A stretch of DNA of 64,000 bases from a virus (lineage: Duplodnaviria > Caudoviricetes): IMG/VR virus record IMGVR_UViG_3300026549_000064, positions 21,016-85,015 of that record. One strand, written 5' to 3'. The first letter of the stretch is position 1. Each line of letters starts with the position of its first letter. Of the stretch, positions 11,860 through 38,769 are shown piece by piece. Position numbers and translations under genes: made by a program. The notes below the pieces were generated by a model. It was not told the DNA's origin and made no database searches. It was given only the letters and a program-made list of their open reading frames with translations.

Positions 11860-12273
11860 TTATCTCTGCCAGCCGAAATAATGATACAATTCTTCAGTGA
11901 GGTACTCACTCTTCTTCTTCAGAAGAAGTTCCCCACTTCTGTTATAACAAAAGACAGTGTCCCCCCAGCTATGCTTGCTAGGTATGTATCTTCTGGTAAT
12001 TGCGCGGACTATATCAGCATCCGAGAATACCTTGGGCTTACTGCCCTCGAGGGTATACCTACCCTCGCCATGCCGGAGAACCCAGGCATTCTGCCCAGTG
12101 CGTACATACGCACTGAGTTCGTAGATCGCCCCGAATTTCGGGGCGAGCTCTATTGCGTTACGGTCCTCCTGCCCTAAGGAAGTTACCTTGCTGGCTTCAC
12201 GAACAATACGCGCTACGCGAGCGCGTATGCTGTTGATTCTCCGGAAGTTGATAGGTCTTACAATTCTATCCAT
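11860..12273 (-). CDS. Basic hypothetical protein, paralog B (137 aa, MDRIVRP...)
   Basis: Same AAGGAG-N7-ATG start and same C-terminus (LYHYFGWQR) as 2320..2730. Confidence 0.75.
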   Translation of the reverse strand: MDRIVRPINFRRINSIRARVARIVREASKVTSLGQEDRNAIELAPKFGAIYELSAYVRTGQNAWVLRHGEGRYTLEGSKPKVFSDADIVRAITRRYIPSKHSWGDTVFCYNRSGELLLKKKSEYLTEELYHYFGWQR

Positions 12274-12342
12274 AATAATTCTCCTTGCTCTTTCGAGCAT
12301 TAATTAAAACTGGATTTCGGTTTTACCCTATTCTCCACTTAA

Positions 12343-12371
12343 ATGATATATATATATATAAAATTGACGAA
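12343..12371 (-). promoter_or_regulatory. Early promoter variant TTCGTCA-N12-TATATATCAT
   Basis: As at 2801, with a longer TA run. Confidence 0.55.
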
Positions 12372-15117: not shown

Positions 15118-18063
15118 TTGCACATGTTTGATGATAAATCGTTACTTATCAGTACTTTAAGAAATCCAGCTAACATAGCAGCTAAAGTTCTCAATGAGAT
15201 TGAGAACAGGCTCAATGGTAAGATTACAATAGCTGATCCTAATGCTCCATTCTGTCATTTACTTGAGTTTGGATCAAGTATAGCTTCGCAGGTTATTAAC
15301 GCTATGGATACAAAGTTTCCGTTACTTTATCCTAAGCGTGCTGAGTCCATGGAAGATTTGTATGCACATATGTCAGATTTCGATTACTTAAGACTATACA
15401 GCACACCTGCTAGAAGTGCTATTCGTTTATATTTACCTAAGAAGTTTTTACTAGACAGTGCGTTAGATTATAACGAAAATTATAAAAAGCTAGTTATACC
15501 AAGTGATACTACATTCTTAGTAGCTAAGTACAATTTTGGTATTTATTATCCGATCGAGATATTGATCAATAACTATACTGGTTCATTTACAGTAGCTTAT
15601 GACACAACCGAGCCTAACCCGTTACATGTTTTGTCTAAAAATGTTATTGACAAATATGAACTTCAGTACATGGGCGTAGATTATTTGATTCTTGATATAC
15701 CAGTATACCAGTTTAGTAAATCTACTATTATCGAAACTATAGTAGCTACTACTGGATTCGTTAAGAGTCTTAATTATAATGATAAATTCTATGCACTTCG
15801 GATTTTTAATTATAAGAATGGTAGGTATACTGAACTAGCACAGACACAGAGCAAAGTTGTTTACGACGCAACTGTACCTACAGTCTATTTTCAGGTACAA
15901 TCTGATAAAAATAAACTCATACTAACAGTACCTCAGGTTTATTTCGATAACGGTATGATGGGAAGTAAACTTCTGATAGAGGTGTATACTACTGTTGGTA
16001 AACTAGATATCGATGTATCAAATATCAACGATACTGATATTGGTGTTACTTATGATAACAATGCGCGTACCGACAGTACGTATACAAATATTTTCAAGAA
16101 TATGCCGTATGATACGATCATACAGCTTAGTGGTGATCGTATCACCGGCGGCTCTAATGCCATTAGTGTTGATACGCTACGTAAGCGTGTAGTTCAGGAT
16201 ACGTTGTATGATAGAGTCCCTATATCTGAGGCTGATCTTGATGTTATGCTTGAAGATAATGGATTCTATGTTCATAAATCTTTAGATAACGTTACCGATC
16301 GTATTTATTACGCCTACAAAGTTATAAGAGATGGTACTGGATCGATAGTTCCGTCTACTACAGTACCACTTAAACTTTTAAGTTCTTACGTTACGGATGG
16401 CAAACATTCTACATTGGTAAATTGTACGGCTGATACGTCGTTAACCATACTTCCCGCTACTATCTACAAATATGATCAAGACGCTAATTGCGCTACTCCG
16501 TTAGAAGATGATGAGCTCAACGCTCTTGTGTCAATGGATAAGGGTGCTTTAGCTAATACTTTGAATACAGCCGGCTACCTTAAAACCCCGTATCATGTGA
16601 GAGTATCATTATCCGGTGAATATCCTAGGGCTGATACGTTTAACTTATCAACGCCGTCAGTAGATAAAGTCATCTTTGTGGAAGACAATTACGAGACTAC
16701 TTATAAGTTAGTTTCGTATGGGGCTACCATTAACCACGATACTGTAGGCTACTATGAAGTATATCTTACTGTATCCGGATCGGATGACGTGATTAGCCTC
16801 TCGACTGATGATATTCTTCTGTACGTGATGGTTAAATCCGAAGATAAATGGGTGGGTACTACTTGCGAATATGTTTCATTCGATGCAAGTACCAAGATGT
16901 ACATCTATAAGTTTATTATACCTACAACGTATCATCTCACTCTGGATAACAAAATAGGTATTACCTATACATCAGACAACGACGATTATAAGAATTATGA
17001 ATATCTTATCGATCTTGTATCTGATTTCCATGTAGTTTACATGGTAGCAAGGACAGCAGTAACTGGTATTTCTGAACCGTCGGATACAATAGTAACTGGA
17101 GTACCTGATCAGTATAAGCAGATGTATATTGGCTTATCTAGGCAGTATTTCACTATCACTTTAGGTAAGAATATCAATAACGTTATTTACAACAATGTTG
17201 AAGTTACCTTAGGTACTAACACTTATGCTAGATATGAGACCAATATCCCGGCCAAGTATACTGAAGATGTTTACGAGCATGATGAAAATGGCTACATTAA
17301 AACATTTACCGATGTAAAAGGTAATATGTATACCAAGAAGATACATGAGGTTGGTGAACCTATTACTGACAGTAATGGTAAAATTAGATATGAGCATATG
17401 ACCGGCGATATTATTCACAATGCAGCTGGCGATCCTGTGCTTGTGTCTGAAGGTTCGGATACCTATTTTGTTACAATGATGTTTATTGACGCTAAGATGT
17501 TCTTCTCGGATAGACAGGCCGAATTGGATTTTCAGAATAATATCTATTCAACGCTTAATTCGTATTTTGATGTTATTACATCCATGCAGGATCAGTTACT
17601 TGAGCGTACTAAACTTTACTTTAGGTGCGTTAAGTCTATCGGTACTGCTAATGTTAACATCGGCGATGGAGCGGTCAGTAAACAAAATATCGAGCTTAGC
17701 TTCCGTATTGTTTGCTATGTTCCGTCTTATGTTAAGCAGAATGAAACTATACAGAAACAAATTACTGAGATGCTTTGTACCTTTATCGAAGAGGCTATTG
17801 AGAGTAAGACAATTTCAATGCTTGATATTTTCGAGAAGGTTAAGGAGCGTGTCAGTGACTATGTAGATCATTTTGATTTGCTTGGTATTAACGATAATGT
17901 TGCTCTGCAGACTTTTGTGGTAACAGATGATGATAGTCAGCCGTCTATTCGTAGACAGCTTGTTCTTACTGAGGATAACATCCTTTCGCTGCGTAAACAG
18001 GTTGATGTAACTTATGTTACTCTTAATCCGAATACGTTAGCGTCAAGTACATATTCTTCTTAA
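15118..18063 (+). CDS. Large baseplate/virion structural protein (phiKZ gp87-like, 981 aa)
   Basis: Size, synteny and motifs (LYAHMSDFDY, GGSNAISVDTLRKRV). Confidence 0.6.
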   Translation: MHMFDDKSLLISTLRNPANIAAKVLNEIENRLNGKITIADPNAPFCHLLEFGSSIASQVINAMDTKFPLLYPKRAESMEDLYAHMSDFDYLRLYSTPARSAIRLYLPKKFLLDSALDYNENYKKLVIPSDTTFLVAKYNFGIYYPIEILINNYTGSFTVAYDTTEPNPLHVLSKNVIDKYELQYMGVDYLILDIPVYQFSKSTIIETIVATTGFVKSLNYNDKFYALRIFNYKNGRYTELAQTQSKVVYDATVPTVYFQVQSDKNKLILTVPQVYFDNGMMGSKLLIEVYTTVGKLDIDVSNINDTDIGVTYDNNARTDSTYTNIFKNMPYDTIIQLSGDRITGGSNAISVDTLRKRVVQDTLYDRVPISEADLDVMLEDNGFYVHKSLDNVTDRIYYAYKVIRDGTGSIVPSTTVPLKLLSSYVTDGKHSTLVNCTADTSLTILPATIYKYDQDANCATPLEDDELNALVSMDKGALANTLNTAGYLKTPYHVRVSLSGEYPRADTFNLSTPSVDKVIFVEDNYETTYKLVSYGATINHDTVGYYEVYLTVSGSDDVISLSTDDILLYVMVKSEDKWVGTTCEYVSFDASTKMYIYKFIIPTTYHLTLDNKIGITYTSDNDDYKNYEYLIDLVSDFHVVYMVARTAVTGISEPSDTIVTGVPDQYKQMYIGLSRQYFTITLGKNINNVIYNNVEVTLGTNTYARYETNIPAKYTEDVYEHDENGYIKTFTDVKGNMYTKKIHEVGEPITDSNGKIRYEHMTGDIIHNAAGDPVLVSEGSDTYFVTMMFIDAKMFFSDRQAELDFQNNIYSTLNSYFDVITSMQDQLLERTKLYFRCVKSIGTANVNIGDGAVSKQNIELSFRIVCYVPSYVKQNETIQKQITEMLCTFIEEAIESKTISMLDIFEKVKERVSDYVDHFDLLGINDNVALQTFVVTDDDSQPSIRRQLVLTEDNILSLRKQVDVTYVTLNPNTLASSTYSS

Positions 18064-18079
18064 AAAATAAAAGTTAGAT

Positions 18080-18111
18080 AGAAGCAGTACTCCCTAGGGA
18101 GTACTGCTTCT
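18080..18111. terminator. Palindromic bidirectional terminator
   Basis: agaagcagtactccctagggagtactgcttct, between converging units. Confidence 0.6.
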
Positions 18112-18121
18112 TTATAGTTTT

Positions 18122-18342
18122 GAAAAAAAAATAGAGGATATTGCTACCCCCTATTCCCTGACGTGCAGATTTCTCTATACGTCGTTGATAGCTATGCATA
18201 GCCTGGCTGGGAACTGATAGCTAAACTATCTTCATCCGCCGTTGGCCGTAGCAGTGGCTATCTATAAGAGAACCGCTTCTGCAGTCGGGCATGCTCGTTT
18301 GGCCTCGTCCGGCTTTTTAGCATTCAGCTGGCGTTCTCATCT
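18122..18342 (-). ncRNA. Candidate ~220-nt early structured ncRNA
   Basis: Own early promoter (18345) and own GNRA-capped terminator; several stems; no convincing ORF. Confidence 0.55.
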
Positions 18343-18344
18343 TA

Positions 18345-18354
18345 ATGATATATA
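18345..18354 (-). promoter_or_regulatory. Early promoter variant TATATATCAT
   Basis: Motif identical to the sites at 2801, 12343 and 41728. Confidence 0.55.
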
Positions 18355-18380
18355 TCTGATTATATTTGATAGACGTCGAC

Positions 18381-20027
18381 TTAGAAAATAATATCATTGA
18401 TAGCCTGAATAGCCATCTTAGTAGCTACAGTGCTATCTACCATTTTCAAATCTTCTTCATCCACACCATCGGCTTCATGCTGATTCATAACTTCGGCAGC
18501 AGCTTCACTAAACATACGGTTGATGCTTTTCAGTTTGCTGTTAGGATATTTGATATCGATGATGAAGTCATAGAGCAAACCTTGCAGATTTTGATCAGAG
18601 TTAGCTTGCATATTGTGCAGAAGTCTTTGCACAGTAGAGGTATCATGACCTCTGACAAAATCGGTTCTAGTTAGCCCTTTAGGAATGTAGCTATCGTCAA
18701 GCGATTCTAGATAAGCGTGAAGTGTCTGCTCAGTAGCTATCTGCTTGGCTTTATTTTGATAGCGAACCATGTTCGCTTGCATTTCTAATTGTTTGGCTCT
18801 AACTATCTCAGCGGCTCTATCTTTGTAGAGACGAATGTCGGATGCTTTGATACCGAGAGTGGGAATACTGTCATCGTTACTCTTGCAGAATCCATCGTAA
18901 TAAACATTCATAGCCGCTTCAGTAACAGGGTTACCTTCTTCAGCTTCTTTCTCTTCGACATCAGGGTTGACTACGCCGCTATCCATGAGAATGGTGTTAT
19001 TCTCGTAAAGCTTTTTGCGTAACGAAGCCATAGCGTAAGCACCGATTTCAAAATTCATAAGAACTGTATCCATATTCTTATGCAGCTTGTTGAAATCGTT
19101 ATCGTTTACGTTGAGTTCTGTTTTCTTAAAAGCTTTGAGAATAGGAAGATATTTTCTTACTCCTTGAGTAAAACTTAAGATAGATTTACCGTATCTTCTA
19201 TTCTTTAGATCTTTAAGATAAAGCTTGTACATGAAGTTATGCATGTGATAATTACTGGTGATAACTTTGTACATTTCAGCGGTTGCTTCTTTTATTTCTT
19301 CCTCTTGATCTTCCGGGATAGAAATGTTCTCGGCTACACGATTTTGTACATCGTTAGCGGTTTCTTTATCCAGATCAATATCCTCTTCATTGTTATTGAC
19401 ACTATCTCCAACGGCAATAGCATCGTCAACAGTGAGCGTAGGAGTCATCTTGGTGTAATCTTTAATATTATTCTTGACAATCTCTGCACCACCAAACCTA
19501 TTGAGTAGCGCATCCCACTTAACTCGGGTTAAGCTGAGTTCTTTTTTCTGCTGCTTATCGTTAGGTTTTGCATTCTTGTTTTTCTTATCCGGAGTATTCT
19601 CAGCTTCGGTGCTATTCTGATTCCGGATAACCTGTTCAGCTTTGTTATCTATTTTCTTCTCTACGTGATTAGCTTCTTTAGCGATTTCACCGCTTAGCGT
19701 AGAAAACGCTGTACAGATGTTTCCGCCGATAGCTCTGGTTACTTCATTAACTACCTTAAAGCAAGGCTGTAAATTAGTACTCTTCTTAGCGCGATTGTAA
19801 GCATCGGTTACACGCTTAACGATAAGAGCAGATCTCTTTCGGCTATCAGTAAAGCCAGCTAAATCTTTATCGCTAAGATTGAGATTACGTAAAGTACTGT
19901 TGACAATTACCTCAAGAGCTGTTTTCAACTGAGGATCGTTGGTTTTAACTTGAGTGTCGCTGAGCTTTTCGATGTCGTTACTGAGCATCTCGCCATAGAC
20001 GCCGCTATCGATTTCTTCTATGTTCAT
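18381..20027 (-). CDS. Hypothetical protein (548 aa)
   Basis: Long ORF with a GGAG SD; no confident family assignment. Confidence 0.8.
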   Translation of the reverse strand: MNIEEIDSGVYGEMLSNDIEKLSDTQVKTNDPQLKTALEVIVNSTLRNLNLSDKDLAGFTDSRKRSALIVKRVTDAYNRAKKSTNLQPCFKVVNEVTRAIGGNICTAFSTLSGEIAKEANHVEKKIDNKAEQVIRNQNSTEAENTPDKKNKNAKPNDKQQKKELSLTRVKWDALLNRFGGAEIVKNNIKDYTKMTPTLTVDDAIAVGDSVNNNEEDIDLDKETANDVQNRVAENISIPEDQEEEIKEATAEMYKVITSNYHMHNFMYKLYLKDLKNRRYGKSILSFTQGVRKYLPILKAFKKTELNVNDNDFNKLHKNMDTVLMNFEIGAYAMASLRKKLYENNTILMDSGVVNPDVEEKEAEEGNPVTEAAMNVYYDGFCKSNDDSIPTLGIKASDIRLYKDRAAEIVRAKQLEMQANMVRYQNKAKQIATEQTLHAYLESLDDSYIPKGLTRTDFVRGHDTSTVQRLLHNMQANSDQNLQGLLYDFIIDIKYPNSKLKSINRMFSEAAAEVMNQHEADGVDEEDLKMVDSTVATKMAIQAINDIIF

Positions 20028-20206
20028 TAACGTTTATCTCCCTTAGCATCTTTGTTGGAAGTTACGCAATCGTAAATCATAGCCGATAGCGAGGTCTTGT
20101 TGACGCTGTTAGACGCGCCTACACTAGAAATAGCGGATCTTGTTAGATCGCACTTGATTAAATAAGCTAGTGTACGGTTAACTAGCTTTTCGGTTTTTGA
20201 TTCCAT
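20027..20206 (-). CDS. Small hypothetical protein (59 aa, MESKTEKLV...; not in the ORF track)
   Basis: AGGA SD; TAATG overlap with the next gene. Confidence 0.55.
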   Translation of the reverse strand: MESKTEKLVNRTLAYLIKCDLTRSAISSVGASNSVNKTSLSAMIYDCVTSNKDAKGDKR

Positions 20207-20310
20207 GATTTCATCCTATTTAGTATAAACAATGCGCATTTGTATACAATAGTCGGATTTTGGACTACATGCTATAAAATAGACTTTCGTTATACATAGT
20301 ACAAGGTATA

Positions 20311-38662: not shown

Positions 38663-38769
38663 GATAATTACCTAATCTAAATTTGTTAAAAGCTTATAAA
38701 TTGTGCGTCATCGAATGGCGCATGGTGTATTATTTATATATGATATAAATCATTAAACTTAAATGGGAG

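Follow-up and report, generated by a model that had tools for sequence, protein, structure and literature searches.

The small RNAs of phages have barely been charted, and among the phiKZ-like phages there is none with a known role. A short intergenic region in the genome studied here raises the question of what is made from a unit in which a promoter, of a type that precedes small genes elsewhere in the same genome, leads to a terminator with no recognizable gene in between. An earlier note on this DNA, written from the sequence alone, had proposed that the unit encodes a novel non-coding RNA. Here, we analyze the unit in the window, by which we mean the whole stretch of 64,000 nucleotides under analysis, and in related phages. 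Our main reading, to which we give a probability of roughly 0.7, is that the unit (called T1 below) is a real, separately promoted, structured non-coding RNA that resides in an exchangeable cassette. The RNA family is new and absent from Rfam. The earlier note had not recognized that the unit occupies the 3' UTR position of the upstream gene and is one of several exchangeable alleles.

The unit sits between two convergent genes, which encode proteins of 981 and 548 aa, and its features all lie on the minus strand (Table 1). The phage genome, an 85-kb IMG/VR contig, encodes multisubunit RNA polymerase subunits (RNAP beta-type) together with phiKZ-type virion proteins, and the data suggest that the source is a phiKZ-like giant phage of the gut or rumen. 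The 981-aa gene is a homologue of phiKZ gp87 and 201phi2-1 gp149, and its product was matched by tblastn in 290 phiKZ-like phage records. The 548-aa gene is the positional counterpart of phiKZ gp86 and 201phi2-1 gp148, as judged from synteny with the gp148/gp149 pair, and is probably a late virion gene; its protein had no PHROG match and no match by tblastn in 50,697 phage records. The bidirectional hairpin between the convergent genes is a back-up terminator and adjoins the T-run at which some alleles have recombined. Ribosome sites of the AGGAG type are strong across the window, which, together with record names such as 'gut metagenome', suggests a gut or rumen host that uses Shine-Dalgarno (SD) sites. 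The binning of one short contig with a Eubacterium MAG is weak evidence.

Table 1. Features of the T1 unit and its neighbors. Positions are those of the window.
Feature	Position	Strand	Basis or remark
548-aa gene	18381..20027	-	ORF list; function unassigned
Upstream promoter box GTCTATCA	18367..18374	-	12 nt before the AT-rich motif
AT-rich promoter motif TATATATCAT, then TAAGATG	18345..18354	-	Enriched recurrent motif
Domain D1, closing helix GAGAAC/GUUCUC (18338-18333 with 18273-18268)	18268..18338	-	MFE folds
Domain D2, long irregular hairpin, closing GAUAGC/GCUAUC	18187..18262	-	Folds
Domain D3, 10-bp hairpin GACGUAUAGA-GAAA-UCUGCACGUC, preceded by the junction CAAC	18160..18183	-	Kept in all four cassette types
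Intrinsic terminator, 13-bp stem with G-U pairs, GCAA loop, U9	18123..18158	-	Fold
Bidirectional hairpin, perfect 14 bp	18080..18111	Strand-neutral	Terminator scan; between the convergent genes
981-aa virion structural gene	15118..18063	+	phrog_3248, E 6e-182

The promoter belongs to a recurrent class. The 13-nt word TATATATYAYTAA occurs eight times in the window, against 1.66 copies expected (0/100 shuffles), and the 10-nt core TATATAT[CT]A[CT] has 13 exact copies in the 85-kb record, those that were read being intergenic. Nine other core copies were read, and each precedes an SD-led ORF, with the ribosome site and the ORF within about 30-110 nt. The copy at the T1 unit, in contrast, has no SD-led ORF before the terminator, in agreement with the earlier note, which had described the architecture of an early cassette from which such an ORF is missing. 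Boxes of the form GT.N.RTCA lie 10-12 nt upstream of most of the other exact motif copies read. In jumbo phages that encode RNAPs, an AT-rich motif that is specific to each phage, about 10 nt long and centered near -10, recurs upstream of presumed early operons and marks the early promoters, which are used by the virion polymerase (PMC7598289). The motif at the unit is of this kind, so its promoter would be of the early type; as in an early unit, copies of the motif recur before small SD-led genes in a phage that has RNAP subunits. Judging from the promoter type, the RNA would thus be made early. The motif begins 27 nt past the stop of the 548-aa gene, and transcription of the T1 RNA would start at about 18340-18338. 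It is hard to explain an early-type promoter placed amid two convergent virion genes, with a terminator 215 nt downstream and a second hairpin behind it, other than as a separate short transcription unit.

The RNA region 3' of the stop codon comprises about 215 nt, is GC-rich and folds strongly. Its GC content of 0.49-0.53 across 18150-18349 compares with 0.31-0.42 in the flanks, a difference that had already been seen, and also lies well above that of the genome. The minus strand of T1 folds at -72.9 kcal/mol (z -3.9; none of 200 shuffles was equally good), whereas the plus strand reaches a z of only -1.9. The predicted fold would run from a helix-closed 5' domain (D1) through a long irregular hairpin (D2) and a GAAA-capped hairpin (D3) to the terminator. 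The interior of D1 is specific to T1 and holds a 7-aa ORF and the start of a 23-aa ORF. The apex of D2 (18237-18205) consists of AUGAAG, a 5-bp hairpin and CAGUUCCCAGCC. The stems that had been proposed from the sequence, namely GAGAAC/GUUCUC, AUGCU/AGCAU, GAUAG/CUAUC (18230-18216) and the GAAA-capped hairpin, are all present both in the sequence and in the MFE folds of T1. A further proposed stem, GGCUAU/AUAGCU, does occur, but it is a local palindrome that is absent from the other cassette types.

The terminator had been described as GCAA-capped with G-U pairs, which is correct, and as part of the unit, which is not: in the element-less relative L002, a homologous terminator directly follows the stop of the upstream gene. 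It would therefore be common to the unit and to the transcript of the 548-aa gene. A recurrent AT-rich promoter just past the stop of a probable late virion gene would thus start an RNA of about 215 nt, which would end at a terminator that the upstream gene also uses. As no terminator separates the 548-aa gene from the unit, the mRNA of this gene must run through the unit. With the terminator shared, this stretch would have a double role, as an independent small RNA and as the 3' UTR of the mRNA that reads through. In a phage-specific manner, the 3' arm of D2 is similar to the final 20-35 nt of the upstream ORF, and hence the 5' arm of D2 is also complementary to the ORF end (9/10); the positions concerned are 18256-18265 and 18182-18192, compared with 18394-18405 at the end of the 548-aa ORF. 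In the related locus L117, an exact 13-mer is common to the ORF end and the D2 arm. Pairing of the RNA with the end of the upstream ORF amounts to 6-10 bp. We take this likeness to be a probable trace of the origin of the cassette, by duplication of the ORF end plus terminator, rather than a mechanism; an alternative pairing of the ORF end and D2 in the read-through mRNA is possible.

With the 548-aa protein, 48 related loci were found in gut-type metagenomes, among viral contigs, metagenome contigs and protein clusters with their contigs. Clusters 1 to 3 number 38, 64 and 40 member sequences, respectively. Past the stop codon, the loci have either one of four alternative cassettes (T1-T4) or an empty slot. 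T1 is present in the window and in eight other loci, T2 in 16 (e.g., L003 and L123), T3 in 18 and T4 in two. The slot is empty in L002, which keeps the terminator only, and in the more distant L119 (58% protein identity), which has the bidirectional hairpin only. One further locus, L221, ends 18 nt past the stop and is counted among the 48 without a type. In 201phi2-1, the matching spacer between gp148 and gp149 measures 42 nt and the slot is likewise empty, so that L002, L119 and 201phi2-1 have 35-46 nt in place of the unit. Since phages without it exist, the unit is dispensable. The four types have in common the promoter, about the first 15 nt of the leader, the CAAC junction, the GAAA hairpin and the terminator, and equivalents of the upstream promoter box were found in T2, T3 and T4. 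Their 3' modules are 73-100% identical. The bodies, on the other hand, are 55-60% identical, compared to 52-58% for shuffled sequences, with the exception of T3 versus T4 (66%). Within T1, the sequence is nearly invariant over the nine loci. Neither the L002 nor the L003 record has another copy of the RNA body, the matches there being promoter copies only. Four unrelated versions or none among relatives is the pattern of a real, exchangeable accessory RNA gene.

How the cassette moves can be read from its borders. L002 and L003, whose aligned flanks agree to 97.75% with hardly a difference close to the site, differ by the unit of roughly 235 nt. In L117, the T1 sequence is identical to that of the window at 216 of 217 positions, whereas the adjoining 548-aa gene is about 77-79% identical (67-87% per 100-nt segment), and the jump to 100% identity falls at the stop codon or within the last 12 nt of the ORF. 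The stop codon of the 548-aa gene is thus the left joint of the cassette. Logan unitigs from four runs, with either variant of the ORF, all end on one 30-mer across this joint, and Logan contigs from five runs (L125, L126, L128, L129, and L221) end on the identical 30-mer that covers the stop of the ORF and T1 up to its nucleotide 18. Such ends are expected of a k=31 graph where paths merge, and this points to co-occurring phage variants that would merge into one cassette in those samples. The 90%-identity protein cluster of L117 carries T1, T3 or T4, and T2 alleles are joined to two different right flanks, which have two versions of the bidirectional hairpin. From these combinations of alleles and flanks it follows that the unit assorts independently of both flanks, with the joints at the stop/promoter and at the T-run of the terminator. 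Terminal inverted repeats or target-site duplications, such as would mark a MITE or an IS element, were not found at the borders; the sole direct repeat, formed by the ORF end and the 3' arm of D2, is internal to the unit and not at its edges. Ordinary recombination at shared regulatory sequence would be the simplest mechanism, as in the PeSL cassettes of T4-type phages (PMC2839356, PMC4122927). Recombination at the stop/promoter and at the terminator T-run would swap the cassette between co-circulating phages, and swapping at both joints would leave the slot with one of at least four bodies or none. A separate rearrangement is seen in one T3 locus (L226:2217-2480), where the bidirectional hairpin has been deleted between two T-runs and the first terminator now abuts the end of the gp87-like gene.

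All four bodies fold better than their dinucleotide shuffles, with z values of -4.0 for T2, -4.7 for T3 and -4.1 for T4 in addition to that of T1, and the antisense strands, where compared among the types, fold less well than the sense strands. The search for homologues and covariation that the earlier note had envisaged gave, apart from the 48 loci, an alignment of the 3' module that comprises T1, a T1 variant, T2 and T3; the covariation thus rests on three to four independent types, all from metagenomic phages. In this alignment 95% of the cells pair, and 8 of the 21 pairs have changed on both sides, with a covariation score of 0.516 compared to 0.256 when shuffled (0/500) and at most 0.198 with slid partners. 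Half of the ten pairs of D3 have changed on both sides among T1, T2 and T3, and its GAAA loop is invariant. In the terminator 100% of the cells pair, with three compensatory pairs. Between T1 and T2 about ten compensatory pairs are spread over five helices. The closing helix of D1 is also found in T2. So is the apex of D2, with the common pattern AUGAAG, a 5-bp hairpin and CAGUUCYCRGCC, in which the hairpin differs by three compensatory pairs (GAUAG/CUAUC versus GCAGG/CCUGC). The closing helix of D2 differs between T1 and T2 by one compensatory change and by two changes from A-U to G-U, which fit the minus strand only, and in T3 one pair of this helix is seen as G-C, G-U and A-U among the 18 loci. 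Within types, 11 of 20 polymorphisms fall on unpaired positions, compared to 37% expected (P about 0.07), and five break a pair; this bias is weak and suggestive only.

Searches for known RNAs gave little. Rfam had no match at gathering level in the window, only generic hairpin matches for T1 at E<=10 (17900-18600) and only weak hairpin-type matches for T2-T4 at E<=1; the novelty for which the earlier note had recommended this check thus stands. ARAGORN found no tRNA or tmRNA in the window. The CRISPR-repeat models of Rfam gave no match at E<=10 in 17900-18600, and neither did the ToxI model. Tandem repeats are confined to the AT-rich promoter and missing from the RNA body, in contrast to the array of about 36-nt repeats of ToxI. 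In these searches the suggestions of an antitoxin decoy and of an anti-CRISPR mimic have found no support; the RNA may nevertheless mimic a CRISPR repeat of its host. Comparison of the unit with 50,697 phage records by blastn gave no match, and a scan for the promoter plus GAGAAC pattern returned the L003 contig only. The junction/GAAA pattern was discarded as too loose, with more than 113 chance matches. Scans for the apex motif in the IMG/VR viral contigs and in 185,579 bacterial genomes gave only chance matches in coding DNA, with no counterpart in either set. Antisense matches to the 85 kb of phage genome did not exceed 12 nt (E about 0.9), which is chance level. Loops of the CsrA type (GGA) were considered by eye and dropped, as they are not enriched; a hammerhead core, a k-turn, an 11-nt GAAA receptor, a 6S-like single long hairpin and a tRNA-like fold were likewise considered by eye and dropped.

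Several other explanations compete with a separately promoted RNA. Least credible among them is a leaderless micropeptide that would start at the RTG after the promoter (MRTPAEC in T1, MNKTP... in T3 and T4). An ATG or GTG does lie at the same place in all types, about 5 nt past the motif, and the codons ACG CCA are common to T1, T3 and T4. However, the frames that start there have 7, 35, 11 and 5 codons in T1 to T4, respectively, share at most two to three residues and are otherwise unrelated, and there is no ribosome site at the RTG. Two T2 copies, L003 and L123, differ at eight positions in the 35-aa frame, which change five residues. The same A/G-T-G also follows the motif before ordinary genes with their own ribosome site, and so the RTG is most likely part of the initiation region and looks like a piece of the promoter. 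The unit has on the minus strand ORFs of 7, 21 and 23 aa and none other; the earlier note had listed the 7-aa and 23-aa ORFs correctly and omitted the 21-aa ORF. The ATG of the 23-aa ORF is ACG in L117, L217, L218 and L222, by which the start is lost. The stems are kept by compensatory changes. No peptide is conserved between T1-T4 and no allele has a conserved ORF, and a conserved peptide was rejected. Hardly more probable is a DNA-level element, i.e., protein-binding repeats or an origin-like site that does not act as RNA. CTATC/GATAG recurs in T1, with five copies of CTATC, and CTATCAAC, which the promoter box contains too, has three copies in T2. These CTATC repeats are absent from T3 and T4, however, and the genome-wide counts of such words (GACGTC, GTCGAC, CTATCAA) are unremarkable. 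Moreover, on the opposite strand, as in a DNA cruciform, the G-U pairs of the conserved helices would turn into A-C mismatches. The lack of a conserved peptide, the strand-specific G-U pairs and the compensatory changes are in line with the predicted protein-free unit, from promoter to terminator, for a structured RNA.

An unlikely but more serious competitor is a structured 3' UTR of the 548-aa gene and nothing else, in which the hairpins would protect the end of the mRNA or insulate the convergent late genes, and the promoter motif would be inactive or incidental. The forced read-through and a terminator that belongs to the 548-aa gene fit this explanation, as do unrelated bodies that have only high fold stability in common, in keeping with generic protection. 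It is also favored by the AT-rich motif of T3, which is degenerate (TGATATTTAAT) in most alleles (L203, L204, L206, L208-L210, and L212). The RNA of these phages may be nothing more than a 3' UTR, and the promoter segment of the T3 alleles appears itself to be swapped or decaying. On the other hand, T1, T2, T4 and one T3 allele retain the full motif with a correctly spaced upstream box, and L207 (T3) has the canonical motif GATATATATCAT about 30 nt after the ORF stop. The element-less phages manage with their short spacers, and the T1/T2 apex motif and the invariant GAAA loop exceed what generic stability would need. Less probable still is functionless filler that is shuffled at repeated promoter and terminator sequences, as a PeSL-like scar or a selfish cassette. 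Presence and absence, the swapping of alleles, joints at the promoter and the terminator, the dispensability of the unit, and the D2 arm that resembles a copy of the ORF end would all be expected of filler. Its difficulty lies in four unrelated bodies that each have a sense-strand z of -3.9 or lower, in helices kept by compensatory changes, in a GC content above that of the genome, and in the near invariance of T1 over nine loci.

The layout of the T1 unit recalls several known classes of small RNA. Type I 3'UTR-derived sRNAs such as DapZ and MicL are transcribed from a promoter of their own at the end of a gene, whose terminator they use as well, and they act by Hfq-assisted base pairing through a conserved seed. 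The T1 unit has the same layout, with a promoter (of predicted activity) at the 3' end of the upstream gene, one shared terminator and a long U tail. It differs from DapZ and MicL in that its promoter has a phage RNA polymerase motif, and no seed or target was found in the 85 kb phage genome. RNA anti-CRISPRs (Racr) are solitary CRISPR-repeat mimics carried by phages, and pseudo-ToxI RNAs are mimics of antitoxins. Like these, the unit is a promoter-driven, protein-free accessory RNA of a phage that varies between relatives; unlike these, which are defined by their likeness to CRISPR repeats or ToxI, it matches neither in Rfam and has no tandem repeats. In phages closer to the source, small RNAs of 201phi2-1 and phiKZ have been mapped by ONT-cappable-seq (PMC11512511; PMC10914365 as cited therein). 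In 201phi2-1 there are 11, three of them intergenic, to which no function was assigned (PMC11512511). They resemble the T1 unit as short non-coding units with a phage promoter and an intrinsic terminator, but have no sequence relation to it, and the conserved sRNA among those described lies in the 5' UTR of a tail gene (PMC11512511). No allelic cassette behavior like that of the T1 slot is described for them there (PMC11512511). The exchange itself is best compared to the PeSL cassettes, in which repeated early-promoter and terminator stem-loops flank variable cargo and are the joints at which close relatives differ by inserted, deleted or replaced segments (PMC2839356, PMC4122927). In the present phages, too, indels and replacements of cassettes are bounded by repeated promoter and terminator motifs. 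However, the cargo of PeSL cassettes consists of protein-coding ORFs, whereas here it is a structured RNA with a conserved 3' module.

As to what a separately promoted T1 RNA would do, we suggest only tentatively, from features of the sequence, that it acts in trans via its fold and offers a host or phage protein a platform to bind or a decoy. The fold, rather than extended antisense pairing, would then be what counts, on three grounds: the GAAA hairpin and the terminator do not vary, a purine-rich internal loop is conserved at the apex of T1 and T2, and no long complementarity was seen in the 85 kb of phage genome. The invariant 3' module would be a common handle and the variable body the part that confers specificity, although the conserved ends could also be kept by recombination rather than by function. 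A bolder and improbable extension is that the slot is a specificity locus, which supplies giant phages that circulate together with different early RNAs on one shared 3' handle. Each of these RNAs would then neutralize or engage a different host factor, for example of an RNA-guided or RNA-sensing defense. Defenses of this kind are still able to reach nucleus-forming phages. Alternatively, the RNAs of a specificity locus would act in competition between co-infecting phages. In either case recombination would reassort the RNA alleles as it does genes for tail fibers or anti-defense proteins. The locus is a natural experiment, since close phages have in the same slot four unrelated and equally well-folded RNAs, on a shared promoter and 3' handle, or nothing. 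If the RNAs act on host factors, they would be an RNA counterpart of the variable islands of accessory proteins, with defined alleles for testing; if they are inert, the locus illustrates how non-coding DNA arises and is reshuffled in giant phages through repeated promoters and terminators. The RNA family can be added to Rfam under either reading.

Some further observations concern the surroundings of the unit and other cassettes of the same phage. Next to the 548-aa gene, in the region 20028-20310, all relatives keep a 59-aa ORF whose stop overlaps the start of that gene, and the intergenic DNA before this ORF forms another highly similar patch (93% identity) in phages that diverge elsewhere. 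Elsewhere in the window, at about 2811-2850 on the minus strand and 38700-38756 on the plus strand, copies of the promoter motif are directly preceded by terminator hairpins, and these terminator-promoter composites resemble the PeSLs of T4-type phages. Three promoter-led small-gene cassettes, at 2730-2810, at 12270-12352 and 1651 nt before the start of the window, all on the minus strand, share a leader whose last element, immediately ahead of the AAGGAG ribosome site, is a GCUC-GAAA-GAGC hairpin. Early mRNAs may have in it a common element for translation or stability.
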